DNA of 64,000 bases from Acidobacteriota bacterium (GCA_965205505.1 CBDBHB010000009.1:1408001-1472000), one strand, 5' to 3'. Positions 353-31,938 are shown, counted from the first letter of the stretch. Translations and numbers: made by a program. Notes: generated by a model not told the origin, from the sequence alone.

Positions 353-609
353 ATGGAACCCGGCACCAAACTAGGTCCCTACGAGATCGCCGAGCAGCTC
401 GGTGCTGGCGGCATGGGCGAGGTGTACCTGGCGCAGGACACGCGCCTGGCAAGGTGCTGCCCGCCGAGTTCGCCTCTGATCCCGAGCGCCTGGCCCGCTT
501 CGAGCAGGAAGCCCGCGCTGCCGCTGCCCTGAACCACCCGCACATCGCCATCGTTCACGATATCGGCACCGAAGACGACACCCACTTCATGGTGCAGGAG
601 TACGGATGA
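353..609 (+). pseudogene. Ser/Thr kinase 5' stub (lineage A) with internal deletion
   Basis: [32 protein letters not shown] / [38 protein letters not shown]; near-identical to the gene at 26343; preceded by TTGTTA-17-TAGAGT 6 nt before the ATG. Confidence 0.85.
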
Positions 610-799
610 CCTTGCCGAACTAGTAAGCGCAGTGAAGGATGATCCTCATCCAACGAAGGCCGACGCCTTCGGCCCCCGCGTGGCCGCCTGGATAGCGAGG
701 ATGGTCCAGAAGGCAGCGACAGGAGCCTGGAAGGTGGGGACTTCGGCAGCGTCAAAACTGATAAGCGAAGCGCTGCTCCGCTACTACGATCTGCAGTAG
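605..799 (+). pseudogene. Orphan C-terminal tail resembling AbiTii-domain proteins
   Basis: [64 protein letters not shown]; no start codon; family recalled from the FGP.V..WI..M..KAA.G.W pattern. Confidence 0.5.
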
Positions 800-868
800 T
801 GAAGGCTGTCCAACCCGCGGCGGGCGTCGCCCCGGCCCACATCTATTGAATATTCCCGCGAGAGAAAG

Positions 869-2080
869 ATGAAGATACGGATTCGAACCAAGGCGGCCGG
901 CGTTTTTCTGCTCTCGGGTTCCATGATGCTGTTGCCGGCTTGCACGCAAGTGTCCCCCGACGAACGTCGGGATTCCGGGACCCCGATTCCAGTCTCAGCG
1001 TCGCAGTCCGATGACGCCGAACTGGTATTTTCGAGTTTGGACATCGATCAGACGAATCGTGGCACCGTCAACATCAACGGCTACGACCGTCATTTCTCCG
1101 TCACGTTTCCCACCTCATATGACAATCAGGTAGCGTATCCGGTCGTTCTATTTTTTCATGGTTGTCGGTGTCGTCCGACAGTCGACGACGAAGCCGTTTT
1201 GAGCTATTTGGACTGGTCACCGAGGTTGGAACCGTATAAAGACGATTTCATCGTCGTCAGAATGTCTGCCTTTTCCGAGATGAAACCGGAGGTTCCCCGA
1301 GCGCCTGAGGATGGTGGAGCGCGCGGTATGTGGTTCTGGCATGAAGGCTTCGAGGCAAAACGGGACGATTTCGCGTTCCTTCATACGGTGCTCACAGCGT
1401 TACAGTCGTCCTCTGATATCAACATCGATCCGGAAAACATCTTTGGGGTCGGTCATTCATCCGGGGCGATCTTCTTGCTCTCGTACGTATTGGGTGGCCC
1501 AGTCGATCTGACCGATGCCGGCTTGAATGACACCTATGCGTTCAAAGCCATTTCCACGACGGGAGGCCCAGGGTTTCGACAGGGGATTGTCGATTTCAAG
1601 GAAAACACGCCCAGCACATTGCCCTCTGTCTTCCACATCCAGGGAGAGCGGGATGGAGGGGTATGGTTCAACGGGCAAGAGACGGGGAAACGAGGCATCA
1701 ATTTCTTAGAATTCGCCAATCCTTCCCCACCAACGGTCGTAGACGGATTCCGAGAGACGGTACATGGGCGTACGTACTCTGCCTGGGACGAGAACACCCC
1801 CTCGAATCCAAGCACCCTGCAACGATGGGCCGAGCATCTCGATCTCGAGTATTCGGGGTACGAGGATTATTCCCAATATTACCTCTATAATTTCCAGCCG
1901 GTATCGACTTCGGAGAACGTGCTCCTCGGGATGAGGATCAAGGATTGCCCGCATGTAGTAGCCGCGGATCAATATCAGGCTGATTTCTTCCGCGTCTTCT
2001 CACAGCAAGATGGTGACTTGCAAGCCTTCGACCGCAAGATCTCGCGAGACACCGCTATGAGGTTTTGTGGCCGTCCTTAA
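869..2080 (+). CDS. Alpha/beta-hydrolase esterase (PHB depolymerase/LpqC-like), putative lipoprotein
   Basis: YPVVLFFHG, GHSSG nucleophile elbow, HIQGERD, lipobox-like LPAC; visibly more AT-rich than its neighbours. Confidence 0.7.
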   Translation: MKIRIRTKAAGVFLLSGSMMLLPACTQVSPDERRDSGTPIPVSASQSDDAELVFSSLDIDQTNRGTVNINGYDRHFSVTFPTSYDNQVAYPVVLFFHGCRCRPTVDDEAVLSYLDWSPRLEPYKDDFIVVRMSAFSEMKPEVPRAPEDGGARGMWFWHEGFEAKRDDFAFLHTVLTALQSSSDINIDPENIFGVGHSSGAIFLLSYVLGGPVDLTDAGLNDTYAFKAISTTGGPGFRQGIVDFKENTPSTLPSVFHIQGERDGGVWFNGQETGKRGINFLEFANPSPPTVVDGFRETVHGRTYSAWDENTPSNPSTLQRWAEHLDLEYSGYEDYSQYYLYNFQPVSTSENVLLGMRIKDCPHVVAADQYQADFFRVFSQQDGDLQAFDRKISRDTAMRFCGRP

Positions 2081-2278: not shown

Positions 2279-2362
2279 ATGGAACCCGGCACGCGACTAG
2301 GCCCCTACGAGATCATCGAGCAGCTCGGCGCTGGCGGCATGGCCGAGGTATACCGAGCACGC
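2279..2362 (+). pseudogene. Ser/Thr kinase 5' stub (28 codons)
   Basis: [28 protein letters not shown], continuing in frame into a lipoprotein-like signal. Confidence 0.85.
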
Positions 2363-2448
2363 AGCCACCGCCCTCTCCGGTGCGCAGCTTTGCTGCTCGC
2401 CGTCCTGCTGGCCCCGAGCTGTGCGGGCCGTGACTCCGCCCGTCGCCG

Positions 2449-4818
2449 TTGACCGCAGAGGTTCCCCTACACCTTGAGGAACACCTCGACGTGGCCACCG
2501 TCGTGGGCTCTGAGGTGCCCGCAGATGCTCCGGCCGTTATGGAATGGCCCTTCGACGAGCCCCAGGAGGATTGGAAGCCGGTAGTCCCATTCAACCCGAC
2601 GATCGATCCGGTCGAGGTCACGCAGTTCGACGACGCGCTGCGAGTCACGTATACGGACGGTACGAGGAATCCGAACGGCTTGCCGAACGGTGGCCTCGTT
2701 CTCGAGGCGCCCGATTGGAACTACGAGGATCTGGGGAACCTCGTGGTGCGTGCTCGCACCTCCGATGATGTCAGGAACTTCTGGCTCTTCTTCAATCGAC
2801 GCGAGGGGACCGATACAGATACAGACCTCCCCAATCCATTCGAGCATGAAGGCGAGACGGTCCCCGTTGTAAGCGACGGTACGGTCCAGACCTACCGGGC
2901 ACGGCTCGATTTCTTTCGGAGGGGTCCGCCACCGGAGGGACGGATTCGGCAGATCGCCCTGTGGTTCGCGCCCGACGATCTGGCCAGCATCGACATCCTT
3001 TCCATCACGCTGATTCCGAAGGTAGCCACCTATGCGGAGGCGGGCGCGGCCTCGCGCACGGAAATCCGCAACCGGATTCATCGACAGGCTCTGTATACGC
3101 ACACGCCGGGGCGCGTGGAGTATCGGGTGAAGATCCCGGAGGCCGGCCGGCTCGACTTCGCCATGGGTGTCCTGCGCGAAGACGTGCCCGTGACCTTTCG
3201 GGTTACGGCGATCCGTGATGGTGCCGAGGGTGGTGAACCGACCGCGGTGTTCGAGGAGCACTATGCGGACAAGGAGGCCTGGAGCCAACGTTCGGTGGAT
3301 CTGGCCGACTTTGCGGGCCAGACCGTGACGCTTGGCCTCGAGGCCGAATCCGAGGACGGTGGCCGGGTCGCTTTGTGGGGAGCGCCGACCGTAACGGGCG
3401 GCGACCAGTCGGTTCTTCGCAACGTCGTCTTCTACGTCTTCGACGGCGGTGCGGCGGACTACATGAGTGTTTACGGCTACAACCGTCGCACGACCCCGAC
3501 CCTGGAGCGGCTGGCCGAGGAGGGCGTCGTGTTCGAGCGAGCCTACAGCAATTCTTCCTGGACCGTGCCCTCGACGGCCTCCTTCATGACTTCCCTACAT
3601 ACCAGTGTGACGGGCGGCTCGCACCGTGCCGGCAACGTCAACCCTCTGCCTGCCGAGGCCGTGACGATGGCCGAGCACATGCACCGGGCCGGCTACCAGA
3701 CCGCGGTGTTCACGGGGAACCCCGGCGCCGGGACTTTGAGCGATCTCCAGCGGGGCGTCGATCTGTTTCGGGAAGACTGGGAGGACTTCTCCTACGGTGG
3801 GAATAATCACAAGGAGTCCTCGAAGTACCTCCATGAGGGATTCTGGAGCTGGCGGGAAGACTATCCCAGGCAGCCGTTCTGGGCGCACTTCCAGACTACT
3901 GACACGCACGAGGACTTTCCGGCTCCGCCACCCTTTGGCGGGCTCTTTGTCACTGCGGATGAGCGGGAGAGCATGAATGAGTCGTTTGATCGCCTAGGTC
4001 GTGGCGGGCACCGTCCCTATTCTCCCGCCTGGGATTCTACGGGGATCAGCCAGACGGCGCTCTACTCTGTGGGGAAGGGCCTGTACGACGAAGCGATGGC
4101 CCACAACGACTATCGGCTCGGGCAGCTCATCGACCGGCTGAAGGTTGAAGGGGAGTGGGACAATACGCTGTTGATCATCGGGGGCGATCACAGTATCCGG
4201 GCGGCTTACGCTGACATGGGACTCGTGCTCAGCGACCCGCTGCCTCCGCCATGGAGCCAGCCGATACTCCGGCCTAAGATCTCCAGGGTGCCCCTCATGT
4301 TCGTATGGCCGAGCCACATCGAGGGGGGACAGCGGATAGCCCCTCCCGTATCGATGATCGACGTGCTCCCCACCCTGCTCGACCTGGTGGGGCTGCCCCC
4401 TGCCGAGATCGCACAAGGGCAGTCGCTGGCTCCTCTGATGTTGGGTCGAGAGGGATGGGAGCCGCGACCGGTGATCCTCGACGAGTTCTACGCCGATTCC
4501 ACGACCGGCGAGCTGGAGGGCGTCATCGAGGTGGTGGACGGTCGCTGGGGCGCTTCGTTGGAGATCAACGACCCGGATGCGCGGCCGCGGTTCGGCCCCC
4601 GTCCCGTCCCACTGCTGCTCTACGACCTCTGGAACGATCCGATGGCTCTGTGGAGCCTGCACGAGGAACGGCCGGACCTCGTCCAAAAGTACACAGCCTT
4701 CTTGGAGGAGCAGTTCGAGGCCCACGTGGCCCTGTCGCAGTACTTCACGCCAGGCGAGGATTCGCCACTGACCCCGGAGCAGCTACGGTCTCTTCGGGCA
4801 CTTGGCTACATACGGTGA
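2449..4818 (+). CDS. Sulfatase/alkaline-phosphatase superfamily protein with N-terminal accessory domains; signal peptide one frame off at about 2440
   Basis: NVVFYVFD, YGY.R.TTP, SSWTVPSTASFMTS, GDH, RVPLMF, C-terminal LRALGYI. Confidence 0.85.
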   Translation: MTAEVPLHLEEHLDVATVVGSEVPADAPAVMEWPFDEPQEDWKPVVPFNPTIDPVEVTQFDDALRVTYTDGTRNPNGLPNGGLVLEAPDWNYEDLGNLVVRARTSDDVRNFWLFFNRREGTDTDTDLPNPFEHEGETVPVVSDGTVQTYRARLDFFRRGPPPEGRIRQIALWFAPDDLASIDILSITLIPKVATYAEAGAASRTEIRNRIHRQALYTHTPGRVEYRVKIPEAGRLDFAMGVLREDVPVTFRVTAIRDGAEGGEPTAVFEEHYADKEAWSQRSVDLADFAGQTVTLGLEAESEDGGRVALWGAPTVTGGDQSVLRNVVFYVFDGGAADYMSVYGYNRRTTPTLERLAEEGVVFERAYSNSSWTVPSTASFMTSLHTSVTGGSHRAGNVNPLPAEAVTMAEHMHRAGYQTAVFTGNPGAGTLSDLQRGVDLFREDWEDFSYGGNNHKESSKYLHEGFWSWREDYPRQPFWAHFQTTDTHEDFPAPPPFGGLFVTADERESMNESFDRLGRGGHRPYSPAWDSTGISQTALYSVGKGLYDEAMAHNDYRLGQLIDRLKVEGEWDNTLLIIGGDHSIRAAYADMGLVLSDPLPPPWSQPILRPKISRVPLMFVWPSHIEGGQRIAPPVSMIDVLPTLLDLVGLPPAEIAQGQSLAPLMLGREGWEPRPVILDEFYADSTTGELEGVIEVVDGRWGASLEINDPDARPRFGPRPVPLLLYDLWNDPMALWSLHEERPDLVQKYTAFLEEQFEAHVALSQYFTPGEDSPLTPEQLRSLRALGYIR

Positions 4819-4828: not shown

Positions 4829-4914
4829 ATGATCGGTACCTCCCGCGGTCCCTACGAGATCACCGAGCAGCTCGGCGCGGCAGCATGGGCGAGGTTTACC
4901 GAGCACGCGACACC
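4829..4914 (+). pseudogene. Ser/Thr kinase 5' stub, frameshifted
   Basis: GAGGAG RBS, then MIGTSRGPYEITEQLGA / [10 protein letters not shown]. Confidence 0.8.
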
Positions 4915-5063
4915 GTCGGCGGATTCCTGTCCGACGTGCCGTGGCGCGCAGACCAGCTGGGCATTAGGCTCTGGACCGGTAGAGCTTGGACAGGAGAGAA
5001 ACCGGTCGGGACTCGAGAACCGACGTTTCGTGTAGCTACGGCGTCAGAGAGTCGGGAGGAGCT

Positions 5064-6989
5064 ATGTCCAGCAGCGATGATCGTGATCTCGGGATGCACC
5101 GGGAGATTACTCGTCGCGACTTCGTCTCCGGTGTCAGCGTTGCGCTGAGCGGCAGCCTCACGTTCCCATGGGCGCAGACGAACGCCTTGGCGAGCCCTGC
5201 GGGTCCGGGAGGAGTCTCACAGGCCCTCGCCGACACGTATCCACCCATCCGCACCGGTATGCGCGGCAGCCACGACGGCTCCTACGAGGTTGCCCATCAG
5301 CTTGTCGAAGGCGTGCGCTGGGACAACGCGGAGGAGACGGGTGAGCTCTACGATCTGGTCGTGGTTGGCGGTGGCCTCAGTGGCCTCGCGGCGGCGTGGT
5401 TCTACCAAGAGGCTGTTTCCGGCGCCCGCATCCTGATTCTCGACAACCACGACGACTTCGGCGGTCATGCCAAGCGCAACGAGTTCCGGCTCGACGGTCG
5501 GATGTTCCTGTCAAATGGCGGCACGGTCTTTATCTCCAACCTGAACGAGTACGGTGAAGGAGCCCAGCGCCTGATCCGCGGGATTGGCATCGACGTAAGC
5601 CGTTACTCCGAATTCGTCGATAGCGACCTGTACAGCTCGCTCGGCCTGCGCAGGTCGGTTTTCTTCGACCGCGAGACGTTCGGCACCGATCGGCTGCTGG
5701 TAGGCGAAGGCAGGCCCTCTTGGCGCGAGTTCCTGGCGCGCGCGCCCCTGTCCGAAACGGCACGTGATGACCTTGTAAGACTCCACGAGCCGAACATCGA
5801 TTACCTGGCGCACCTCAGCTTGGAGGAGAAGGTCGAGTTTCTTCGTAACACGAGCTACGAAGACTTTCTCTTGAAGGTGTCCCAGGTAGGTCGCGAGGCA
5901 ATCTCCTTCCTCGAGACCTCCGGCGGTTGGACCATCGGCCTCGATGGCGTCCCCGCCTGGCTCGGCGCCGGCCGCTGGCCTGGGACCACCGGGCTGGGGC
6001 TCGGCGACGACGATGATGATGCCGATGATACCGGCGAGGAGCGTGCTTTCTTCCAGTTTCCGGATGGCAACGCGTCGATCGCGCGTCTGATCGTCCGGTC
6101 GCTGATCCCAGAGGTCGCTCCCGGCAGCACGATGGAGGACATCGTCGACGCTCAGTTCGACTATGGCAAGCTCGATCGGGAGGGCTCGGCTGTCCGCGTG
6201 CGGCTGGAGAGCACAGCGGTGCGGGTAGCTCACCGTGGCGATCGGCGAACCGCCAAGGAGGTCGAGGTCACCTACGTCCGCGACGGCCACGCCCGGCGCG
6301 TGCGCGCCGGTCGTTGCGTGCTCGCCTGTTACAACGCCGTGATCCCTTTGATTTGCGAGGAACTGCCGGATATTCAAAAACAGGCGCTATCGAACGCACT
6401 CAAGTCGCCACTTGTCTACACCAACGTCCTGATCCGCAACTGGACCGCCTTCGCCAGGCTCGGTGTGAGCAGGGTGCGCTGCCCGGGGAGTTATTTCGAG
6501 AACGTGAATGTGCCGCCACCCATCAGCATCGGCAACTACCGACACGCTGGTACGCCCGAGGAGCCCATCGTCGTGCGCATGTGGCGCGTTCCCCTCGTAC
6601 CGGAGGCCCGCGGGCGGTCCGTGGCTGAGCAGTGGAAGGCAGCCCGCCATGGTCTGTTGGCGACGACGTTCGCGACCTTCGAGCGCAAGATCAGGGACCA
6701 GCTCGGCCGGATACTGTCGCCCGGAGGCTTCGACCCGGCGCGCGACATCGCGGCGATAACCGTGAATCGCTGGCCGCACGGCTATGCCAAAGGCCTCGAT
6801 CCGAAGACGGGTCAGATCGCGTGGAGGCCCGATGAGGTGCCGCCCGAGCGTGCCCCGTGGGTCACCGCCCGGCATCCTCGTGGCCGGATCGCCATCGCCA
6901 ACTCCGACACCGGCGCACGGGCCATGACCGAGATCGCCATCGATCAGGCTCACCGCGCCGTGAGTGAGCTCTTGTCGGCGAAGACCTAG
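5064..6989 (+). CDS. Spermidine dehydrogenase-like FAD oxidoreductase, Tat signal
   Basis: GGAGGA RBS; TRRDFV; GMRGSH; DLVVVGGGLSG; DNHDDFGGHAKRNEF; FPDGNAS; NRWPHGYA. Confidence 0.85.
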   Translation: MSSSDDRDLGMHREITRRDFVSGVSVALSGSLTFPWAQTNALASPAGPGGVSQALADTYPPIRTGMRGSHDGSYEVAHQLVEGVRWDNAEETGELYDLVVVGGGLSGLAAAWFYQEAVSGARILILDNHDDFGGHAKRNEFRLDGRMFLSNGGTVFISNLNEYGEGAQRLIRGIGIDVSRYSEFVDSDLYSSLGLRRSVFFDRETFGTDRLLVGEGRPSWREFLARAPLSETARDDLVRLHEPNIDYLAHLSLEEKVEFLRNTSYEDFLLKVSQVGREAISFLETSGGWTIGLDGVPAWLGAGRWPGTTGLGLGDDDDDADDTGEERAFFQFPDGNASIARLIVRSLIPEVAPGSTMEDIVDAQFDYGKLDREGSAVRVRLESTAVRVAHRGDRRTAKEVEVTYVRDGHARRVRAGRCVLACYNAVIPLICEELPDIQKQALSNALKSPLVYTNVLIRNWTAFARLGVSRVRCPGSYFENVNVPPPISIGNYRHAGTPEEPIVVRMWRVPLVPEARGRSVAEQWKAARHGLLATTFATFERKIRDQLGRILSPGGFDPARDIAAITVNRWPHGYAKGLDPKTGQIAWRPDEVPPERAPWVTARHPRGRIAIANSDTGARAMTEIAIDQAHRAVSELLSAKT

Positions 6990-7033: not shown

Positions 7034-7183
7034 GCGTCTCCAAAACGTCTCCACGACCGGGGTTCACACCAGTAGACGCCAGTCGACTGGAGTCGACTAC
7101 TTGAGCCACCGTTAACGGTTACCTGCCAACGAGAAACGGCGAAAGCCGTGCGCCATCAACCACTTAGCAGAATCCGCTAGATC
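7034..7183 (+). repeat. 150-bp direct repeat, copy 1
   Basis: Aligns ungapped to 9176-9325 with 4 mismatches. Confidence 0.95.
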
Positions 7184-9080
7184 ACGGCCTCGTGGCGGAA
7201 CGCCAGGTGTCCTCGTTGAGCACCTCGTCGATGACGCTCTCCAGGTAGCTCCAGTACTCGTCGATGTAGCTGTGGCCTCTTGGTCCGGTCAGCAGCCACG
7301 GGTTCATCAGGGTATGGCGGAGAATGAAGATGTGATCGGCCTCGCGCTCGTCGTCCTCCGGCACGCGCACGAAGGAGACGGGATCGATGCCCAGCTCTTC
7401 GAGAATACGGTGGGCCTGCGCGCCCGGCAGGCTCTTCTTCTTGAGCGAGGTGTATGAGCCGATGAATGTCTTGACCTGCAGCGGTTGCTCGGTGTCCACG
7501 CGCATACGCCGGAACACCTGGCGCCCGAACCGATTCATGACGGCGAGGCATCGGTTGCCGCTGGGGTTCATGGCCAGGCACGCCAGATTGCTGTCGGGCT
7601 CGAAGGGCACCGGCAACACCTTGTGGGTGACGTATACCGATGCAGCGGCGGCGCCCGCCTTGGAGCCCTCGAGGATGTACTGTCCCAGATTGTGGAGCTG
7701 GTCGCGCCGCGATGCCTCGCCCTCGCTGCCGCCCGAGTCGAACACATAGGCGGGGGCTTCGCTGACGAAGTCGACAACCTCACGGTTGCGAGCGATGAAC
7801 GCACCCGCGGCGTAGGGAACGTAGCCCAGCTTGTGGGGATCGACGGTGATCGAGTCGGCTTGCGGGAGCACTTTGAAAGCCCGATAAATGCGCTCCGACG
7901 GGAAGTAGCGGAACGACTTCCGCAGCTCCTCGCGGTCAGCGAACGAGCCGTCGGGACGCCGGAACACGGAGGTGAGGTAGCCACCCCAGGCGGCATCGAC
8001 GTGAACGCCGAAATCCAGTCCCCGTTGCCGCCAGCTGTCGCGCGCGGCAATGACCTCGTGAATCGGATCGAAGGTGCCGAACTCCGTGCTGCCGAGGATG
8101 CCCACCACGGCCAGTACCGGCGTGTGGCTCTCGAACGCCTCGTCGAGACAGCGGCGAAGGTCGGGGGCATCCATGCGCATATGGCTCTCGACCTGGATCT
8201 TGCAGAGGTTCGAGGTTCCGAGCCCCAAGACCTTCATGGCCTTGTCCCATGAGTAGTGGCCCGACGCGGACACCATCACCTTCGGAGGACTGACGTCCGG
8301 ATGTTGCAGGAAGAAGCCGGCCGTCCCGAGTGCCTCGAGCCGTTGGCCGCGTACCGAGTGGACGAAGTCATGGAGGTCGCGCCGGTTCATGAGGGTGCGG
8401 GCCTGCCGACCAACCGTACGCCGCAACTCGATGGTGGAATCCACCGACAGATTGAGCAGCTCCCAGTCCGAGTAGGCGCTCAGGCTCTTGTGGGCCGGGC
8501 CCACTCCGTCTGGATCGAAGCCGCACACTGCCGCGCCAGCCTGCAGCGCGATGCCGTAGAACTTGACCGAGCGCAGGTTCCAGAGCGCCTCGTAGTTGGC
8601 CACGGTGCCGCCGCTCGTGAGGTGTCCCCAGGCACACGGCTCGCGGTTCTCATCGACGCGATACCCGATCATCCTCGCCAGCTGCTCGCCGACCTCCAGC
8701 TCCATGTCGAGCGTTACCGGAGCTGTTTCCTCCGCCACGTTGTTGGGGTTGTAGAGCGTCGTCACGATGCGTGCCACGAGGCCCGCGATCAGGAGGTCGG
8801 AGCTCATATGGCCGACGTAGCGGGGGTGGAAGGACGGCAACGCCTGCTTGAGCTCGGCGCTCAGCGCATACAGCTCTGTGCGGAGTCGAGCCTGGAACTC
8901 CACGTAGTCAGGCCGCGTTCGGGCAGACGAGGCGATGCGCTGACCATCCTCCGGATGGAAGTTCCGGCGCCAGTAGACGTGGTCGCGTAGGAACTCCACG
9001 ATCAGCTCTTCGAGCAGCTCGGCGTTCTCCGCCGCCGGCCCGAGAAAGAACGGGTCCAGGAAATCGAGATCTTCGTTCAT
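7182..9080 (-). CDS. Group II PLP-dependent decarboxylase (tyrosine/glutamate decarboxylase-like)
   Basis: PRYVGHM, YNPNN, TSGGTVAN, HVDAAWGG, SITVDPHK (PLP lysine), ILEGSK; may lack a short segment after THKVLP. Confidence 0.9.
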   Translation of the reverse strand: MNEDLDFLDPFFLGPAAENAELLEELIVEFLRDHVYWRRNFHPEDGQRIASSARTRPDYVEFQARLRTELYALSAELKQALPSFHPRYVGHMSSDLLIAGLVARIVTTLYNPNNVAEETAPVTLDMELEVGEQLARMIGYRVDENREPCAWGHLTSGGTVANYEALWNLRSVKFYGIALQAGAAVCGFDPDGVGPAHKSLSAYSDWELLNLSVDSTIELRRTVGRQARTLMNRRDLHDFVHSVRGQRLEALGTAGFFLQHPDVSPPKVMVSASGHYSWDKAMKVLGLGTSNLCKIQVESHMRMDAPDLRRCLDEAFESHTPVLAVVGILGSTEFGTFDPIHEVIAARDSWRQRGLDFGVHVDAAWGGYLTSVFRRPDGSFADREELRKSFRYFPSERIYRAFKVLPQADSITVDPHKLGYVPYAAGAFIARNREVVDFVSEAPAYVFDSGGSEGEASRRDQLHNLGQYILEGSKAGAAAASVYVTHKVLPVPFEPDSNLACLAMNPSGNRCLAVMNRFGRQVFRRMRVDTEQPLQVKTFIGSYTSLKKKSLPGAQAHRILEELGIDPVSFVRVPEDDEREADHIFILRHTLMNPWLLTGPRGHSYIDEYWSYLESVIDEVLNEDTWRSATRP

Positions 9081-9175: not shown

Positions 9176-9325
9176 GCGTCTCCAAAACGTCTCCACGACT
9201 GGGGTTCACTCCAGTAGACGCCAGTCGACTGGAGTCGACTACTTGAGCCACCGTTAACGGTTACCTGCCAACGAGAAACGGCGAAAGCCGCGCGCCATCA
9301 ACCACTTAGCAGAATCCGCTGGATC
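9176..9325 (+). repeat. 150-bp direct repeat, copy 2
   Basis: Copy of 7034-7183. Confidence 0.95.
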
Positions 9326-9349: not shown

Positions 9350-9554
9350 TTGAAAACAAAGGACTTACGCGGCGGCGCGGGTGCGAGTTGTTGTCTCATA
9401 CGGGCTGATTGTCCCTATTCTGTCCCTGTCGCGGGCCTCGGGCCTTCCACGGGGTGCGTGCATAGCGAAGCGCCCTCGCGATAGGTGGCCTCGGGATTCC
9501 CGTGGTATCGGGGCGTTCCGGCACGCGAAGCTGGGGACACGACGGCACCCTCCG

Positions 9555-9583
9555 TGGACCCCTGCGAGCCCCAGCGATAGGCT
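9555..9583 (+). promoter_or_regulatory. Repeated promoter module, copy 2
   Basis: TGGACC-17 nt-TAGGCT-TCAGGCGCTCAC. Confidence 0.65.
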
Positions 9584-9614
9584 TCAGGCGCTCACTCCCC
9601 CCTCTGGTACCGCC

Positions 9615-10028
9615 ATGGAACCCGGCACTCGACTAGGCCAGTACGAAATCCTCGACCGCCTCGGTGCAGGTGGAATGGGCGAGGTCTACCGCGCACGCGA
9701 TACGACGCTGGATCGTGACGTCGCGATCAAGGTGCTGCCTGAGGACTTTGCTGACGACGCCAACCGGCTGGCTCGCTTCGAGCGCGAAGCCAAGCTGCTC
9801 GCCTCGTTGAACCACCCCAACATCGCCACGATCTTCGGCTTCGAGGAATCGGATGGCGTGCGCTTCATCGCTATGGAGCTGGTCGAGGGTGTGCAACCAT
9901 CCGGCGAAAGGACGCAGATCTCGACCGATTCCGGGGGTTGGCCACTGTGGTCCAGGGACGGGGCGGCGATCTACTACGTGCTAGTGCCAGCTACGAACTT
10001 CAAATCAGCAAAGAGAACCTCAGGATGA
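9615..10028 (+). pseudogene. Internally deleted kinase-propeller gene (lineage B kinase N-lobe joined to a late propeller blade)
   Basis: [37 protein letters not shown] joined directly to [21 protein letters not shown]; no HRD or DFG. Confidence 0.85.
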
Positions 10029-10420
10029 TTCTTCGTACATTTGCACAATTGAAGGGGACACCGAATTTTGTCGAAGCGGATGGTTTCGTGAGCGCCCGCC
10101 TGGCGGTCGCGTCCGACAACCTGGGCTTCACCGTAACCGAGGCCGTCGGCGCGGCAGACATCGACCTCGAGGTCGAGCATAAGAATCACATCGAGGCCGT
10201 TTACATTCTCGAGGGAACCGGCACCGTCGAGATCATCGAGACCGGGGAGATTTATAGACTGGAGCCGGGAGTTTTCTATGCTTTCGACAAACATGAGCGT
10301 CACCGCTACAAGCTGGATACCGAAGTGCGCGCCATTGCCATTTTCAACCCGCCGCTGGTTGGCGACGAAGTCAACGACGAATCGGGTGGATACGCTCTCC
10401 CGGACGATGCCGAAAGCTGA
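10025..10420 (+). CDS. ectC: Ectoine synthase-like cupin (solitary)
   Basis: [45 protein letters not shown]. Confidence 0.8.
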
Positions 10421-10672
10421 GGTTGTAGTCGCTCTACTTGGAGATTACCCGGGCAACTAACGACAAGGCGGAACACAGCAGCTTAGGTGATGCCATCCGG
10501 TGTTATCCCGATACAACTAACTGCCACGCAATTGCACCTGCGCCACGAAATCCACTACCCTCGCCCCCCTTGCTCTCCAGATTGCCTTGCGAGGATCGGC
10601 GTCGGCGGCTGGAAGGAATAGGTTTCGAGTAGGAGATTGTGCCGACCCCTGACGACAACCTCCCCGCCAGGA

Positions 10673-10714
10673 TGGTTCGACGAGCTGAAGCGGCTCGTGC
10701 CGACGGACCCGTAG
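10673..10714 (+). repeat. Isolated kinase-propeller 3' tail ([13 protein letters not shown])
   Basis: 42 nt nearly identical to 16500-16541, 26182-26223 and 31716-31757. Confidence 0.9.
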
Positions 10715-10742
10715 CGGCTGGCAGCCTCATCGGCAGACACCC

Positions 10743-11027: not shown

Positions 11028-11174
11028 CGGTTGAGACAGACTGGGCAGACACCAGTCATATGTCTGTTTAGGAGCCCGAGAAGGGCCGCCGACAGCCTCG
11101 CCGGCACTTCGGGTTGGGCTGCGTGCCCGTGGACGTTAGAGGGGCGCTGAGAGGGAGCGTCCCGGCACCTGCCT

Positions 11175-11203
11175 TGGACCCTCGCTCGCTCCGGCGATAG
11201 GCT
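11175..11203 (+). promoter_or_regulatory. Repeated promoter module, copy 3
   Basis: TGGACC-17 nt-TAGGCT-TCAG. Confidence 0.6.
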
Positions 11204-11270
11204 TCAGCCGCATATGAGCGCAGGGCCAGTAGTGGAGCCTTGAACCATGTGAGGAGGAAGCAATGGAGGC

Positions 11271-19735: not shown

Positions 19736-19754
19736 GATGTAGACGATCTCCTGT

Positions 19755-22892: not shown

Positions 22893-23159
22893 TTCATGTC
22901 TCCTCGAGCGTCAAGGTGTGGGCAGTGAGACAGCGCCGCTGACGCAGTGATCGAAGAATTCCCTTGGGACAACACACAGCTATAGAAGTCTGCCGTGGCC
23001 AGGCGATCCTAGTCTACTAGTGCTCCTGATCATAAGTACGGTGACGTTTGTGGCGCGCGCGACCGAGCCGGATCCCAGGAGGCGCGACGACAGCGATGCA
23101 ATGAGCATCGTCGAGGAGCGCCGACGCCGGAGGCTGCCGGTCCCGCCGCCACCCGGAAG

Positions 23160-23261
23160 GCTGGGCCGAGATAGGGGCAATCTCGGCGTTGCGATTCGTC
23201 GACGATCGGCGAGGATCGCCATTCTCATCGCGCCTTGAGCTTGCCCCTATCTCGGCCCAGC
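23160..23261. repeat. 102-bp element with perfect 21-bp terminal inverted repeats
   Basis: GCTGGGCCGAGATAGGGGCAA ... TTGCCCCTATCTCGGCCCAGC. Confidence 0.85.
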
Positions 23262-23501
23262 AATATGCAACGGATTCCTGACTCAGGACACTAGATGCCC
23301 AGACCGGGTCGATCCGGTGCCACTACGCTCCCGCGGTCCAGCAAGTTGCCGTTCTTCATTCCAAACTCGAAGGCCCGGTCGAATTGCCGCGGCCCGTGAG
23401 GTGAACAGGAAACGCTGTCCCCGACCTTGATGACCACCGTGGCCACAATCGGCTCGGCCGGGTAGTCTGTGAGCATCCCGCTCCAATCAAACCGGGTGCA
23501 C

Positions 23502-26223
23502 ATGGAGATCGGTAGCAAGCTCGGCCACTACGAGATCCTTGCCCCGCTCGGTGAAGGCGGGATGGGGCAAGTGTACCGAGCACGCGACACGACGCTGGAC
23601 CGTGATGTCGCCATCAAGGTGCTGCCGGAGGACTTCGCCACCGATGCGGGTCGGCTAGCCCAATTCGAGCGCGAAGCCAAGCTGCTCGCCTCGCTGAACC
23701 ATCCCAACATCGCCATGATCTTCGGCTTCGAGAAATCGGATGGTGTCCGCTTCATCGCCATGGAGCTGGTGGAGGGTCAGAGTCTCGCCGAACGGATCGA
23801 AGCCAGTGGTCGCATCGAAGTTGATGAAGCACTGGAGATCGCCCGCCGGATCGCGCTGGCGCTAGAAGCGGCCCACGAGGCTGGCGTCATCCATCGCGAT
23901 CTCAAACCCGCCAACGTGCAGGTGGCACCCGATGGCACCGTCAAGGTGCTCGACTTCGGGCTGGCCAAAGCCTACGAAGCGGAAGGCAGTGAGCCGTCGT
24001 CCGACCTGAGCCACTCACCCACGATAATGGCCGCCACCGGCACCGGCGTGATCATGGGCACGGCTCCCTACATGAGCCCAGAGCAGGCGAGGGGGCAGCC
24101 CGTCGATAAACGTGCCGACATATGGGCGTTCGGCTGCGTGCTGTACGAGATGCTGACGGGCGAGAGGACGTTCGATGGTAAGACCGTCAGCGACACGATG
24201 GCATCGATCCTCAGGGATGAGCCGAACTGGGATCGGTTCGCCGGCGATGTCCCCTCGAGAATCCGGGATCTGCTCCGTCGATGCTTGGTGAAGCTTCCGT
24301 GCGACCGTCTGCGTGACATCGGGGATGCTCGTATCGAGATCATCGACGCCGTCGCTCAGCCCGATGTGACCACCGCTCGATCGTCGGCTCCGGCCAAGCG
24401 ATGGCCGGTGCCCTCGTGGGGGCTCGCGGCCCTGGTGGTTGTTGGCACGCTTGCCGTCTTGTACGGGCTTCGCTCCGAAGCCCCGTCGCGCCGACCTACG
24501 CAGCGAACGCTGGTGGACCTGGGCCAGTTGGGACGAGTCAGAACCGGGATCAGCGCGCATCCTGCGCTCTCGCCCGACGGCACACGACTCGTCTACGCCG
24601 CCGAGGTTGATGGCACAACGCGCCTGTACACGCGCTCCTTGGATCGACTCGAGACCGAACCGATCGCCGGTACCGAAGGCGCCTACGCACCGTTCTTCTC
24701 GCCCGATGGTGAGTGGGTCGGGTTCTTCAGCTCCGTTGCCGACCGGAGGCTAAGGAAGGTGTCCGTTCGTGGTGGCCAGCCGCAGCCGCTGTGCGACGCC
24801 TGCGAAGCCCCCATCGGCGGGGGCGCCTCGTGGGGGGCGGACGATGTCGTGGTCTTCTCTGCCCAGGTCGCGGATCAGTGGCGCCTGTTCCGGGTGTCGC
24901 TCGCCGAGAACGGCGACCCCGAGATCCTGACCTCGGTGGACCGCGATCAGGGGGAGCGCGCCCACCTGGCTCTGCAGATCCTGCCCGGTGGTGATTCGGC
25001 ACTATTGACCATCCGGGGGTCTTTGGGCGTCTCCTGGTCACGCGTCGGTGTCGTCGATCTTGAGACGGGCAACCCGGCCCTTGAACATCCGCGGATACAG
25101 CGCACTGTACGTTCCGACGGGACACGTCGTTTTTCTTCGCGCCGGCGAGCTGTGGGCAGCGCCGTTCGACCTCGCACGGCTGCAGGCCGGCCCGGAGGCG
25201 CCTGTTCTCGAGGGGATTGAATGGGACAGCTTTTCAGTATCCACGCCGTTTGCCTTCACCGACGACGGATTGCTCGTTTACTTGCGCGGAGGTGACATGA
25301 ACGCCGGACCCGAGAGGAGCCTCGTCTGGGTGGATCGCGAGGGTCGCGAGGCGCCGCTTCCGTGGCTCAGTCCGGCTCGCTACGGCCGGCCGCAGGTCTC
25401 ACCGGACGGCTCTGCGATCGTCGTGGCCATCATCGACGGCTCGGGAAACGAGGACCTGTGGATCGTCGATCTGGAACGTGAAGCCATCGATCAATTTACA
25501 TTCGACCCGGCGCAGGATTGGATGCCGATCTGGACGCATGATGGTGAATGGATCGTGTTCAGCTCAGCCCGCGAGACCGGGGTGCTGAACTTATGGCGAA
25601 AGGCTGCCGACTTCACCGGGTCGCCGGAGCGACTGACCAGTGGTCCCGACAATCAGTATGTCCACGGGTGTGCCGCGGACGGTGAAACCGTGTTGTTCTG
25701 CGGCGGCAACAACGGCCTGCCGTTCAACCTGGGCCTACTGCCGCCGGGAGGGAGCACGGACGCCGAGTACATCACGCAAACGGAGTTTATGGAGGCGGTG
25801 CCGGTCAACTCGCCCAATGGCAGATGGCTCGCGTACCAGTCGGACGAGACCGGGCAGTTCGAGATTTACGTCGCTCGGTACCCCAATGTTCGCGATGGCA
25901 AGCAGCGGATCTCCACCGACGGCAACGGTGGCTACGCACCCGTGTGGGCACGTGATGGCACCGAGCTCTTCTATCGCAGCAGAGAATCGCTGATGAGAGT
26001 CGGCGTCGTGGCGACCGAACCCACGTTCGTGTGGGACCCTCCCGAGGCCGTGTTCGAGGACACCTACTTCGTGGGTGACTACCGCTACTTCGACGTTTCG
26101 CTCGACGGGCGGCGCTTCCTGATGATGAAGGAATCCGGGACACTACCCAGCTCCACCACGCAGCTCGTCTTCGTCAGCAACTGGTTCGAAGAGCTAAAGC
26201 GGCTCGTGCCGACGGACCCGTAG
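23502..26223 (+). pseudogene. Ser/Thr kinase-TM-TolB/PD40 beta-propeller protein 1, frameshift at about 25070
   Basis: GEGGMG, VAIK, HRDLKPAN, DFG, YMSPEQ; TM helix; SPDG repeats; NWFEELKRLVPTDP. Confidence 0.9.
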
Positions 26224-26342
26224 CGCGTACAGCCAATCTGGAGCGCGCTTTTTTCAGGGTGGATAGAGCCACCGAATCTCGGCGCATGAGTTCATCGCAC
26301 GGCCGTGGCAAGTGTGACTCTCAGCGCGTAGCCTCTCGTGCT

Positions 26343-29095
26343 ATGGAACCCGGCATCAAACTAGGCCCCTACGAAATCACCGAGCAGCTCGGTGCTGGCG
26401 GCATGGGCGAGGTGTACCTGGCGCAGGACACCCGCCTGGGCCGCAAGGTGGCCATCAAGGTGCTGCCTGCCGAGTTTGCCTCTGACCCCGAGCGCCTCGC
26501 CCGCTTCGAGCAGGAGGCCCGTGCTGCTGCCGCCCTGAACCACCCGCACATCGCAGCGGTCTTCGATGTCGGCACCGAAGACGGGACCCACTTCATGGTG
26601 CAGGAGTACCTGGAGGGGGACACGCTCCGGGAGCCGCTACAGAAAGGTGTGCTGCCGCTCAAGAAGGCGCTCGGCTTGGCCACCGAGATCGCCGAGGCGC
26701 TGGCTGCTGCTCACGCCGCCGGGATCATCCACCGCGATCTAAAGCCGGAGAACATCTTCGTTACCAAGGAGGGGCACGCGAAGGTGTTGGACTTCGGCCT
26801 GGCGAAGCTCACCGAGGTAGCGGCGGCAGGCTCACCGGGCGGTGCAACGCAGTCACCCACGATGATGGGCACGGTGGCCGGTCAGGTGATGGGTACTGCC
26901 GGCTACATGGCCCCGGAGCAGGTCGAGGGCTCCGACAAGATCGACCATCGAGCCGATCTGTTCGCCTTCGGTTGCGTGCTCTACGAGATGGCGAGCGGAG
27001 CACGGGCATTCGCCGGGCGCAGTATCGCCGAGACGCTGGCACACATCCAGCACGATGACCCAGCATCGATTCAGGAGTCCGACCCGTCTCTGCCCGACGA
27101 GCTACAACGCATCGTCCGAAAGTGCGTCGCGAAGGAACTGGATCGCCGATACCAGGGTGGCAATGATCTCGTGGTGGATCTGAAGGCGTTGGCGCGTGAC
27201 GTGGAGTCGGGTAGCGCCGGGATGGTTCCCCAACGTCCGCCGGTCGGGCTGAGGCCTAGCTCGAGCATGAATTCCGACAGTCGGCATTACCGGCCAGCGG
27301 GCAGGCACCAGCCGTCGTGGAAACGACACGCGGCATCCCGTGGAAGCTGGCAGCCCCGATAGCCGTGGCCAGCGTCCTTCTTGGGGCTTTCGGAGTCTGG
27401 ATCACGACCCCGTCAGCGCCAGAGTCCATCGTTCGCCGCTTCTACATCGACTATCCACCAGAAACTACTTTCCAGAGCGAGTCCACCCTGGGCGTTGCGA
27501 TCTCACCCGATGGCAAGTCGGTGGTATTCAACGCCAACCGGCAGCTTTGGCTCCGAGCGATTGACGATCCGGTTGCCACACCCATCCGTGGCACGGAGGA
27601 TGCCAGAGTGCCGTTCTTTTCACCCGATGGCCAACAGCTCGGCTTTCGGGGAGTCGATGGGCAAATGAAGAAGGTTTCGAAAACCGGCGGTGCGCCGGTG
27701 TCGCTGGGGCCAGCGCCTCAGCTACCTTACGGAGCGAGCTGGGCAGACGACGGCTACATCTACTTCGGGCAGGGTGCCGGAGGGATCTGGCGTGTCTCAG
27801 ACAACGGCGGTGAACCACAGGTAGTCGTTGAAACGGAAGAGGGCGAGCAAGCCTACGGCCCCCAACTTCTTCCCGGTGGCGAGTGGTTGCTGCTTACGCT
27901 GGCGAGCGGCCCCGGTACGTGGGACGAAGCGAGCATCGTTGCCCAGCCGGTGTCTGGCGGTGACCGCAAGGTGCTGGGCATTGTCGGCACCGATGGCCGC
28001 TACGTGCCCACCGGCCACATCGTCTATTCGCTCGCAGGCAACCTCTTCGCAGTGCCCTTCGATGCAGACAGCATCGAGGTTACCGGAGGACCGGCGTCGA
28101 TCGTCGAGGGGGTCCGGCAGGGGAGCCTCACGGGAGCAAGCCAGTACGCGTTTTCGGATCGCGGTGGGTTGGTGTACATGCCGGGTGGTAGCGCTTTCCA
28201 ACTCGTCTGGGTGGATCGTGACGGCCAAGTCGAACCGCTGCCCTTCGAGCCGCGTGCGTCTGAGGACTTGGACCTCTCGCCGGATGACCAGCGCATCGCG
28301 CTCGGAGTCCAGGGAGATGATGGGGAGTGGGACATCTGGATCTACGAGATCGAAAGAGGGGGCAGCCAGGTGCTGCTGACCATGGAGGGCAACAACCAAA
28401 TGCTCGTTTGGTCGCCGGATGGAGAGTGGTTTTTCTTCTCGTCGGATCGGGGTGGCAACTACGACATCTGGAAGCGCCGGGCTGACCGGAGTCTCGAAGC
28501 CGAGCTGCTGTTGGATACAGAGGCTAACCTGTGGCCGACATCGATCTCGGCGAACGGTGCGATGCTGCTGGTTAACAGTGGGATCTTACCGAATCTCGAC
28601 GTGAGGATACTGCCTCTCGATACAAGTGATACGGAAATGCTCGTCGATACTGCCGGCAATGAGACTTTGCCCAGTTTCTCGCCGGACAGTCGCTTCTTCG
28701 CCTTCGCTTCGAATGAGACGGGGCAATTCGAGGTGGTCGTGCGGGAGGTATCGAGCGGTCGGACATTTCCGGTCTCTACCAGTACCCGTGGTGGTTGGTT
28801 CCCTCGCTGGTCGCGGGACGGAAGGGAGATTTACTACGCATCCGTCACAAGCCCAGGCATCCTCGTCGCGGAGGTGGCGATGGAGCCGTTTTCCGCATCC
28901 GACCCTGTCGAACTCTCGGACATCGTCATGCGTGCCAATAGCAACTTCGATGTCACCGCCGATGGGCAGAAGTTCCTGGTGACGGTGCCCGCTCGTAGTG
29001 ATGAGACTGGGGCCACGGCACCCGGCACACGACTCAACATTGTCCTCAACTGGTTCGAGGAATTGAACCGGCTCGTGCCGACGGGCGGCTCCTGA
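26343..29095 (+). pseudogene. Ser/Thr kinase-TM-PD40 propeller protein 2, frame broken by a probable 52-bp insertion (27219-27270)
   Basis: [17 protein letters not shown]; second frame open from 27271; TGGCAA-17-TAGCCT 8 nt before the ATG. Confidence 0.9.
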
Positions 29096-31757
29096 TGGTC
29101 GGCAAGACGCTCGGCCACTACGAGATCCTCGCCCCGCTCGGTGAAGGCGGCATGGGAGAGGTGTATCGGGCACGCGATACCACGCTGGATCGTGATGTCG
29201 CTATCAAGGTGCTGCCCGAGGACTTCGCCACCGACTCTGGCCGCCTGGCTCGATTCGAGCGCGAAGCCAAGCTGCTTGCCTCCCTGAATCACCCCAACAT
29301 CGCCACCATCTTCGGCTTCGAGGAATCCGACGGTGTGCGCTTCATCGCCATGGAACTGGTCGAGGGACAGAGTCTCGCCGAGCGGATCACCGCTTCCGGT
29401 CGCATCCCGGTCGATGACACGCTAGAGATCGCCCGCCGGATTGCGCTGGCGCTCGAAGCCGCGCACGAGGCTGGCGTCATCCATCGCGACTTGAAGCCGG
29501 CCAACGTGCAGGTAGCAACCGATGGCACCGTCAAGGTGCTCGACTTCGGGCTGGCTAAAGCCTACGAGGCGGAAGGCAGCGAGCCGTCGTCCGATCTCAG
29601 CCACTCACCCACGATGATGGCCGCCACGGGCACCGGCGTGATTATGGGCACAGCTCCCTACATGAGCCCGGAGCAGGCGCGTGGTCAGCCAGTCGACAAG
29701 CGGAGCGACATCTGGTCGTTCGGCTGTGTTCTGTACCAGATGCTTCACAGGGAAGGCGGTTTTCGGCGGCAAGACCGTGAGCGATGTCATCGCTGCCATC
29801 ATCGAGCGTGAGCCGGATTGGAGCAGTCTGCCCGACCGTCTGCATCCTAGGCTGAGGGAATTACTCGAGCGTTGCCTGGCGAAAGACCCCCGAAGCCGAT
29901 GGCACGACGTTGCCGACGTCCGGCTTGATGTCGAAGGAGTCCAGAGAGATCCACACCGCACGGAGCAAAGGGTGCCTCCCTTCGACCGGGGCAAGCAAAG
30001 AACCTCGTCGGTGTGGGCGCTGGCTAGCTTCGTGTTGGGCGCGGTTGCGACGGGTGTGGTGATGTGGAGCCTGCCAGGCGCTGTCGATACGGATACTCGT
30101 ACGGTGCGCTTCTCTTACTCGCTGCCGCTGACTCAGACGTGGACAGTTCGTCACGGCAACCTCTTGGCCGTCTCGCCCGATGGGAGCAGGATCGCATACG
30201 TTGTAGATCAGCAGCTCTATCTACGCGGGCTGGATCAGCTGGAGGGCACACCGCTTCCCGGAACCGACGGTGCCGCGAGCCCGTTCTTCTCGCCGGATGG
30301 GAACTGGGTGGGGTTTGCGACCGAAGGCAGTCTGAAGAGAGTCTCGGTCGCGGGAGGCGCTCCACTCGATATCTCGGCCGCCTGGAGGGTGACGGGCGCG
30401 ACCTGGGGAAGGGACGACACCATTATCTTCGGCGGCGGTGCCGGTTCCGGTCTACTGCAGGTTCCGGTGTCAGGAGGAATACCGCAGCCGGTGACTTTTC
30501 CAGATCCCGAAAAGGGCGAGGTCCACCATGGCCTTCCCCAGATGTTGCCCGATGGGAAGACGGTGGTGTTTACGGTTGCGACCGGGGAGGGGTCCCGTCT
30601 CGCGCTGTTGTCGTTGGAAACGGGCAGCTGGCGGGAGCTCCTGCCTGCCGGCTCGGGGGCTCAGTACTTATCTGCCGGGTACTTGCTGTTTTCTGAAGAA
30701 GGCAATCTGCGGCTTGTTCCGTTTGACCTCGACGATGGCGAGGTGACCGACTCCATCGTTCCTGTATTAGATGGCATCGAGTGGGAGAGTATCGCCGGTT
30801 TGGAATTAGCATCTTTCGCCGTGTCGCCAGCCGGTAACTTGGCGTACATCCCCGGCGATCTGCGGTTTCCCCTGACAACCCCGGTGTGGGTCGATCGCAA
30901 CGGGCGCGAAACGAGCATCGACGTCGATCCGGCTCTGTACCTCGGAGCGCATATCTCACCGGACGGACGGCGAGTCGCCTTCACCCGCGTTGCAGCAGAC
31001 GGACATGGAATCGGCGACGTGTGGGTTCTCGAGCTCGGCGCAAATCGAATGATTCCGGTCGTTCGCGAAGGGGGCTGTCTACAACGCAATCTGGACGCCG
31101 GACGGCGCTATGCTCACCTTTACGGTCAACGGCAATCTGTTTGAGACGTTGGTGGACCGTGACGGCGCACCCACGAATCTCCTGAGGCGCGAGAACTACC
31201 AGTTATCTCGGTCGTGGTCTCCGAATGGGTAGGACCTGGCGTTTGTCGATTGGTCGCCGGCTGGATTGAGCGTCTGGATCTTGTCCCGTGAGGGCGACCT
31301 ATCGCCGTTAATGGATTCGAATTCGACCTCGAATTCGACCTCGCCCCGGTTCTCTCCCCAAGGCGGTTGGCTTGCGTATCTTTCTGACGAATCTGGACAG
31401 CCAGAAGTCTACGTTCGCCGTCACCCGGGCTCCGACCGAGGCCAGAGAGTGTCGAGCGAAGGAGGGCTGCAGCCGGTTTGGTCAGTCGACGGAAAGGAAC
31501 TGTTCTACCGCAGTGGAGATCGGATGATGGCTGTGCCGATCACAACGGAGCCCGATCTCTCGGTCGGCGTGGGTCGCGAACTCTGGGAAAGACCCTACTT
31601 CGACACCGGGATGCTCGGTGGCAGTTATGACGTTGCTGCTGATGGCCGTTTTCTGATGCTCAGCGTCTCCGACTCTTCCTACTCGCTGGGCACACAGGTC
31701 AGTGTGGTCACCAACTGGTTCGACGAGCTAAAGCGGCTCGCGCCGACGGACCCGTAG
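29095..31757 (+). pseudogene. Ser/Thr kinase-TM-PD40 propeller protein 3; frameshifts at about 29745 and 31070, in-frame TAG at 31230
   Basis: Kinase domain nearly identical to that at 23502; TGATG overlap with the previous gene; tail [14 protein letters not shown]. Confidence 0.9.
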
Positions 31758-31794
31758 CGCCCTCAGCCGACGCTCGCCACGTACTCCGCGTGGT

Positions 31795-31938
31795 CTCGCC
31801 CGCTTCGAGCAGGAAGCCCGCGCTGCCGCTGCCCTGAACCACCCACACATCGCAGCCGTTCACGACGTGGGCACCGAAGACGGCACCCACTTCATGGTGC
31901 AGGAGTACCTGGAGGGAGACACGCTCCGGGAGCCGCTA
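31795..31938 (+). pseudogene. Internal fragment of lineage A kinase
   Basis: [48 protein letters not shown]. Confidence 0.88.

Follow-up and report, generated by a model that had tools for sequence, protein, structure and literature searches.

Ends of a Ser/Thr Kinase-PD40 Gene Family Frame Unrelated Genes in Co-Oriented Arrays of an Uncultured Acidobacterium

Introduction

In the orphan modules of Rhs and contact-dependent inhibition (CDI) loci, co-oriented fragments of a conserved gene precede variable content and provide homology for recombination with the full gene. There, the stub derives from the 3' portion of the conserved core; it carries a toxin tip and is accompanied by an immunity gene. 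At capsule and O-antigen loci, content is replaced without an integrase through conserved single-copy flanks at one locus, and in homology-facilitated illegitimate recombination a one-sided anchor lets foreign DNA in while recipient DNA is lost. Here, we describe a stretch of 64,000 nucleotides (nt) from an uncultured acidobacterium ("the window", G000:C9:1408001-1472000), in which the 5' ends ("stubs") and 3' ends ("tails") of a Ser/Thr protein kinase-PD40 gene family stand around unrelated genes ("cargo"). The source genome, G000, is metagenome-assembled (5.98 Mb, 9 contigs, 64% GC); other genomes are named by similar handles, and plain coordinates are window positions. The ends are probably what is left of co-oriented kinase arrays.

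Promoter reuse has been documented as putative mobile promoters, defined by similar upstream sequences (identity of 80% or more across 50 nt or more) before unrelated genes of one genome (PMC3575422). No known mobile element accompanies them, and they may reach into the coding region (PMC3575422; Nijveen, Matus-Garcia and van Passel 2012). Most families have two members, and the survey window was -150 to -50 (PMC3575422). Large families of Ser/Thr kinase paralogues, mostly less than 50% identical, have been reported from an Acidobacteria genome (PMC3174227; Challacombe et al. 2011); the main text of that report contains neither "promoter" nor "pseudogene", and its passages on kinases and tandem genes mention no stubs or framed cargo. 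Among the open-access papers on promoter reuse and on acidobacterial paralogues, no account was found of gene-family ends framing unrelated genes in arrays.

Kinase Ends and Cargo in the Window

The kinase pieces were located by a repeat finder and by tblastn with the window's own kinase pieces. The repeat finder returned kinase starts at 346-603, 2272-2375, 4834-4878 (with its ATG at 4829), 9604-9903, 23491, 26332, and 29081, a shared upstream piece at 2232, 9570, and 11745 (the last belonging to the stub at 11792, whose homology spans 11745-11805), and tails at 10648, 16475, 26157, 29026, and 31691, two of which (10648-10725 and 16475-16552) lie outside full-length genes. The same places were found by tblastn, with 31786-31938 in addition. 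The copies are 62-93% identical to each other, and the stubs match the kinase profile over its first 16-300 nt. In whole-genome profile searches, the five 5' stubs of the window have E-values of 4e-13 to 9e-74 and the two tails of 1e-15 and 5e-27; the pattern of kinase ends is not due to chance. The 5' stubs, 3' tails, and three disrupted tandem genes listed in the original prediction were thus nearly all recovered, and every kinase piece is on the plus strand, as it had stated. An "internal fragment" placed at 14937 shrinks to a weak match of 28 nt (14943-14970; 89%, E 6e-4 in a small search).

The full genes encode a Ser/Thr protein kinase domain followed by PD40 repeats forming a TolB-like β-propeller (Pfam matches in the gene pieces: Pkinase, E 1e-48 to 3e-52; PD40, E 1e-8 to 4e-24). 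Three of them stand in tandem on the plus strand: gene A (23469-26223), gene B (26343-29095), and gene C (29095-31757). In the Pfam scan, each is broken into two or three open reading frames (ORFs), and comparison with intact paralogues locates one or two frame changes per gene (at about 25013-25108 in A, about 27254-27281 in B, and about 29745 and 31036-31089 in C). Directly behind gene C lies an internal kinase-domain fragment (31786-31938, plus strand; profile 152 to 300). Genes B and C form a recurrent pair, in which the stop of a type-1 kinase (MEPGT..., ending ...TGGS) overlaps the start of a type-2 kinase (M[IV]GKTLGHYEIL...), here as TGATG at 29092-29098; the overlap suggests translational coupling of the two paralogues. 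The pair also occurs in G000 at C7:234720 and C9:2054905, and the junctions of the tandem genes in the window are 26223-26343 and 29092-29098.

Most stubs are preceded by a conserved element of ~65 nt, here termed PE, which in the copy running from 2214 (CCGTGGACCC...) to 2278 abuts the ATG. The leftmost stub (346-603, plus; profile -12 to 267) is devoid of PE, and a 16-nt deletion at 449/450 shifts its frame; it precedes an esterase-like ORF (869-2080, plus) with a G-H-S-S-G motif in the DNA. Next come PE and a stub of 27 codons (2214-2360, plus; ATG at 2279), which runs into the signal peptide of a lipoprotein-type sulfatase (2361-4818, plus) with its frame broken near 2437 in the assembly. 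A type-2 kinase start (4829-4914, plus; MIG..., GGAG before the start) ends after ~86 nt and is followed by a FAD/NAD-binding oxidoreductase (4986-6989, plus), formerly labelled SpdH-like and belonging to a multicopy family. A pyridoxal-phosphate-dependent decarboxylase (7182-9080, minus) then lies between two copies of a 150-nt direct repeat (7034-7183 and 9176-9325; 97% identical), which consists of post-tail spacer and post-FAD sequence.

Further right, PE and a stub (9543-9990, plus; ATG at 9615, kinase sequence to 9903) continue in frame into a short segment of the final PD40 blade. An ectoine-synthase-like cupin (9938-10420, plus; Pfam match from about 10025) stands between this blade piece and a tail (10673-10725, plus; ...FDELKRLVPTDP, stop) found by both the repeat finder and the tail profile. 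A promoter-only PE copy (11156-11212, plus; positions -82 to -27) precedes PE with a 16-nt kinase start (11708-11807, plus; ATG at 11792), behind which lies a convergent, minus-strand block (11973-16218) of a Rieske oxygenase (11973-13520), an AMP_N fragment (14063-14722), and a DAO oxidoreductase (15004-16218). It is closed by a second tail (16392-16552, plus), comprising the last ~50 codons and conserved post-stop sequence.

Pfam bears out the cargo identities of the sulfatase, the FAD/NAD-binding protein, the ectoine synthase, the Rieske oxygenase, DAO, the MacB/FtsX permease, and PadR, and also identifies the decarboxylase and the AMP_N fragment; the "esterase" has no Pfam match. That cargo lies in either orientation is true solely of the genes behind 11792 and of the decarboxylase, four of the five stubs being followed by a co-oriented gene.

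The Family across the Genome

Both ends are multicopy throughout the genome, so that the window is not special. This extent, and PE itself, had been missed by the original prediction. With a profile that combines PE and the first 45 coding nt, 71 copies are detected in the genome. A kinase-5' profile (to nt 836) yields 93 matches, of which 26 reach its end, 56 are 5'-anchored and truncated, and 11 are internal; the 56 stop between +2 and +664, as counted from the table of profile hits. Stub ends cluster at +22 to +25, +37 to +43, and +77 to +86. The tail profile, which includes ~60 nt of conserved post-stop sequence, has 42 genome copies, many of them cut on the left. Intact kinase-PD40 genes are reduced, by crude gene calls, to four ORFs of 780-1000 amino acids (aa).

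The ends are not scattered independently. Another kinase end follows within 9 kb downstream of 44 of the 70 5' elements, and in 41 of these 44 cases it shares the strand of that element (14 tails and 27 more 5' elements). The genes between kinase ends lie in either orientation. PE copies are often 80-95% identical over 65-90 nt, and their left edge is sharp at -65 in nearly all copies. The PE query matches 6 of 41 genomes, namely G000, all four other genomes of its genus, and G007 of a second genus, the one match among the 36 genomes searched outside the genus; up to 108 PE candidates are present in G004.

Six stubs end at +22 to +25, directly after CTAG. A CTAG-targeting MITE (miniature inverted-repeat transposable element) was considered as a possible maker of these breaks but gains no support from the sequences beyond the six ends, which share nothing. 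The preferential survival of ends was dropped as a proof of selection, because the same outcome would follow from a single internal deletion or replacement in each gene.

PE as a Candidate Promoter

Behind the 71 PE copies, nine have a long kinase match and 29 a co-oriented gene (at least 100 aa, within 400 nt). Co-oriented genes exceed opposed ones with a binomial p of 0.012, calculated as if the copies were independent, which they are not. The 21 listed co-oriented proteins downstream of PE mostly possess signal peptides (secreted proteins). Eleven PE copies are promoter-only and end between -15 and -36, most of them between -24 and -28, just behind GATAGGCTTCAGGCGC; an end at about -26 is where a transcript would be expected to start if GATAGGCT were a -10 box. 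PE is therefore best regarded as a putative promoter. The long survival of an in-frame stub (see below) and the surplus of genes that share the orientation of the PE before them suggest that PE and the kinase start have been reused as promoter and gene start.

No assignment of PE to sigma-70 or sigma-54 was retained, the consensus scan being negative and a GG-N10-GC match seen by eye failing in other copies. RNAalifold predicts no structure for 38 full copies (energy 0.0) and no attC-type palindrome among them, and Rfam gives no match at gathering score over the whole window; an RNA leader or riboswitch in PE was rejected on these grounds. No tRNA genes were found in the window.

An Old Stub-Sulfatase Fusion

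The long-lived in-frame stub is that of the sulfatase. In the window, its 27 kinase codons share the frame of a lipoprotein signal peptide (RSHRPLRCAALLLAVLLAPSC), behind which the sulfatase follows. The same junction is found in two further G000 copies, in G005 (another genus), and in G020 (another family), where the fusion is an intact ORF of 829 aa. Behind the sulfatase stop, G005 and G020 also carry an out-of-frame tail remnant (...NWFEELKRLVPTG, stop). In G004, the stub stands before the sulfatase in another frame. Among sulfatase homologues of other lineages, a kinase start is present in one of 22 translated upstream regions, namely the G020 record itself; the remaining regions (Gemmatimonadota, Bryobacterales, Planctomycetota, and others) encode an ordinary short signal peptide, which indicates that the kinase start replaced the native start once, early in the order. 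The fusion thus appears to predate the split of the order's families, and the stub-sulfatase unit looks old and inherited rather than recently captured.

The frameshift of the window sulfatase is a strain difference, since an extra G at 2437, absent from the assembly and from run X1, restores the stub-to-sulfatase frame in contigs of runs X5 and X6 from two other studies.

A Crossover within a Kinase Start

G004 contains two separate arrangements, a sulfatase followed by a full type-2 kinase and a PE-stub followed by a FAD gene. In a three-way alignment, the window corresponds to the first left of about 4850 and to the second right of it, and the switch falls inside the shared ~70-nt kinase 5' homology, i.e., within the stub. 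This is what would be expected of recombination between two co-oriented kinase starts with loss of the intervening DNA, and the sulfatase-stub-FAD junction of the window is a recombinant of these two arrangements. A Campbell-type insertion of the sulfatase, suggested by an apparent duplication of kinase nt 11-82, was rejected on the ground that the second stub is the start of a type-2 kinase with its own ATG and GGAG.

The 9615 gene, whose residues 99-121 match the last propeller blade, is a kinase with an in-frame internal deletion. A special homogenisation of the kinase ends was discarded: sliding identity across 10 long copies (kinase domain, 0.65-0.78; propeller, 0.4-0.55; final 60 nt, 0.6-0.66) reveals nothing beyond protein constraint. 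The ORFs of about 90 aa or more between -9 kb and +42 kb yielded no integrase, transposase, or recombinase domain, in agreement with the integrase-free character originally claimed.

Junctions and Population Variants

The window stretch is present in runs of at least 12 studies. Short-read contigs of four studies cover 574-2258, 9827-10702, 10689-12027, 13501-16518, and 16516-18212; run X1 contigs show no differences over these spans, and the junctions agree across studies at 99% or more. The stub-cargo junctions are real, and misassembly, on which the original prediction had staked its own failure, does not account for them. Joints with sides of 20-33 nt (409/10688, 428/14946, 4818/16499, 10716/11133, and others) probably reflect other genome copies and were not used. 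Two structural variants occur among the runs: contigs of X5 and X6 skip 14594-15455 (862 nt, with the 28-nt kinase piece and the final third of DAO), and those of X4 skip 1014-1606 (593 nt, inside the esterase ORF).

Origin of the Arrays

We favour, with a rough probability of 0.55, the view that the region consists of remnants of co-oriented kinase arrays, whose ends have been reused as promoter and gene start and recombine by ordinary homologous recombination. It would be a decayed and reshuffled part of a large co-oriented Ser/Thr kinase-PD40 family, the ancestral unit comprising the ~65-nt PE (presumed promoter), the kinase gene, and the conserved last ~50 nt with its post-stop spacer. In most units, a single event (internal deletion or illegitimate replacement by another gene) would have taken out the gene body, leaving a 5' stub and a 3' tail around new content. 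Stubs would be kept where PE and the kinase start serve the downstream gene as promoter and sometimes as translation start (promoter or 5'-end capture), and RecA-type recombination among ends would delete, fuse, and redistribute units. One body-removing event per gene explains why starts and tails outnumber internal pieces, former tandem arrays, such as G004 still has, explain the co-orientation, and dozens of co-oriented, 80-90% identical ends in one genome make ordinary recombination among them understandable. This account builds on the anatomy, copy numbers, and co-orientation of the ends, one old in-frame fusion, one crossover in a stub, and real junctions; what it would add is a promoter role for PE, selective retention of the stubs, and a pathway of recombination.

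Several points weigh against it. Twelve of the 71 PE copies are followed by an opposed gene and 21 by no gene, and a sigma-70 consensus scan does not call PE, which keeps its promoter function putative. Selection on the stub-cargo units is not obvious, as several are broken, by a frameshift in the window sulfatase, by a deletion of 370 nt in the C9:1136 copy, and by an out-of-frame stub in G004. The independent contigs break inside repeated cores (2258, 9827, 10689/10702, and 16518), so that the order of units depends on the original assembly. Finally, pure decay does not explain the presence of whole foreign genes between stub and tail, nor the sharp left edge of PE at -65.

An alternative, possible and on balance improbable, is a sharpened form of the original prediction, in which the kinase array behaves as a cassette platform: the 5' and 3' ends would act as universal homology arms and expression frames for integrase-free capture and exchange, within or between genomes, by double crossover, by circular intermediates, or by homology-facilitated illegitimate recombination after DNA uptake. 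The evidence supports it only partly. The crossover within the stub, the missing integrase, and the position of ectC and of the Rieske-DAO block, each between a stub and a tail, agree with it. Comparison with sister genomes, in which synteny ends ~7.2 kb upstream of the first base of the window and resumes near 32.3-32.9 kb, also bears on it. Two slots hold different content in G004, as this proposal anticipates: upstream of the PE-stub-sulfatase, G004 has a secreted ORF of 458 aa in place of the esterase, and, next to the conserved right flank, three PE-headed units in place of the three kinases. G004 also retains a complete kinase in the place of one window stub, which is the outcome of ordinary deletion that the original prediction had set against itself.

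The cargo itself divides in the same way. The esterase unit (833-2216), with 57.8% GC, is 84% identical to a unit of G016, a genome of another family with 57% GC, and a kinase-domain piece precedes both (540 to 822 in G016); this low-GC esterase looks imported. The kinase breakpoints before it, however, differ (822 in G016 and 267 in G000). The FAD genes are 94-96% identical to the G003 and G004 copies, more than the syntenic flanks (81-93%), as expected of exchange between species; yet the block in common with G003 is just 4940-6974 (95-96%) and ends at gene borders lacking kinase ends, so that one cargo gene appears to have moved between species without kinase ends at its borders. The decarboxylase was not found in the four same-genus genomes searched, is flanked by the 150-nt spacer repeat and not by kinase ends, and none of its homologues in other genera has kinase ends within the loci fetched. 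The crossover in ~70 nt of kinase 5' homology thus upholds the kinase termini as homology anchors, with some cargo borders devoid of them, and entry of foreign DNA through these anchors is not supported.

Sequence divergence adds to the difficulties of a platform. Stubs share 80-89% identity with their best matches at other places of the genome, which gives no sign of recent spread and makes them ill-suited to frequent recombination; in full-length kinases, the ends resemble each other no more than the remainder of the kinase domain does, and the stub-sulfatase unit looks vertically old. Its widest form, a genus-wide, integrase-free gene shuffling in which kinase ends provide a universal "frame" of expression signals and homology arms, is a shade more doubtful. 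If it were true, a gene in a frame could move by ordinary recombination into dozens of kinase loci, within or between related genomes.

No more probable than such a frame is a mobile promoter, by which PE and the kinase start would themselves propagate before unrelated genes, the kinase family being their source and not their victim. Seventy-one copies with a common left edge at -65, most of them before non-kinase genes, promoter-only and variable-length versions, and a near-restriction to one genus with many copies per genome (up to 108 candidates in G004) are what it predicts; furthermore, many PE copies reach the published threshold (80% across 50 nt) before non-homologous genes of one genome, and the published concept of promoter reuse includes elements reaching into coding sequence (PMC3575422). 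Hallmarks of MITEs or insertion sequences are nevertheless lacking: PE copies have no terminal inverted repeats and no conserved structure, and no relationship is seen among the sequences that follow the stub ends. Best inter-copy matches of 80-89% argue against a recent burst, co-oriented clusters with tails fit former tandem arrays better than scattered insertion, and the tails would require a second explanation.

Still less probable is convergence on a regulon, in which PE copies would be alike because one sigma factor or regulator needs them, the kinase-coding stubs being incidental. Conservation in blocks (at about -65 to -52, -46 to -18, and -9 to +14) with a variable spacer, and promoter-only copies that stop where a transcript would start, suit this view. 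However, identity continues through the spacer and the leader and into as much as 300 nt of the coding region of the kinase, which implies common descent and not convergence on a motif, and PE is not found outside the genus apart from one match.

Chimeric joins caused by kinase repeats in this metagenome-assembled, nine-contig genome, for which contig breaks in repeated cores and the resulting dependence of unit order on one assembly could be invoked, are very improbable, since each junction from stub end to cargo is reproduced at 99% or more by contigs from four studies, the copies (62-93% identical) are too different to collapse, and the same architectures recur in sister genomes.

Other Features of the Window

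The window starts, on the minus strand (1-140), inside a PadR-like regulator gene (recognised by eye: ...GEFEHLVLLAALRLRDQAYAPQI...), which adjoins a second ADOP-type permease upstream (L012:17088-19838); a PadR and permease pair occurs again at 16658-19830. Within a minus-strand cupin-like ORF, a 300-nt tandem-like direct repeat (20008-20637; 83%) is followed ~20 kb away by an inverted occurrence at 40585-40907 (72-76%). The FAD/NAD-binding proteins at 4986-6989 and 20907-22892 belong to a family that is multicopy in this genome and its sisters, and whose short motifs reach 17-28 matching places. The interval 23001-23300, just upstream of kinase gene A, matches 60-69 places of the genome; this high-copy element has internal palindromes (GGGCCGAGATAGGGGCAA ... 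TTGCCCCTATCTCGGCCC) and CTAG on both sides, and is probably a CTAG-targeting MITE.

Comparison with Known Systems

Like putative mobile promoters, PE stands before unrelated genes. It differs from them in its 71 copies and its position (-65 to -1), in an identifiable source gene family, of which the copies carry 15-300 nt of kinase coding sequence, and in the arrangement of the kinase ends in co-oriented arrays with matching 3' tails. With Rhs and CDI orphan arrays, the kinase array shares co-oriented fragments before variable content. In contrast to them, the stubs of the window are 5' starts, and the cargo consists of ordinary metabolic or secreted enzymes in either orientation: in place of toxin tips and immunity genes, Pfam identifies a sulfatase, oxidoreductases, a decarboxylase, an ectoine-synthase-like protein, a Rieske oxygenase, and a permease. 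Compared with capsule and O-antigen exchange, the flanks would here be the two ends of a multicopy family at dozens of loci, and transfer through kinase ends is a proposal.

As in the cassette arrays of integrons, unrelated genes are separated by a short element recurring on one strand. Kinase arrays, however, possess neither an integrase nor an attC-like folded site, their cargo lies in both orientations, and their recurring element has its own promoter-like sequence and gene start. A frame system as outlined above, should it exist, would be a homology-based counterpart of the integron.

Promoter reuse and repeat-mediated rearrangement are usually regarded as isolated cases. In this 6-Mb genome, about 70 starts with the putative promoter and about 40 ends remain of a single identifiable family, in ordered arrays that surround working genes, and one of its fusions has been retained across the families of an order. 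The fate of an expanded family thus becomes readable, its bodies lost, its regulatory ends apparently kept and re-employed, and its leftover repeats driving shuffling. The presence of the stretch in at least 12 studies offers a strain comparison that could separate passive decay from working homology-based gene acquisition. Promoter reuse and the expansion of kinases in Acidobacteria were known; what appears to be new is that the two ends of one gene family frame unrelated genes in arrays.

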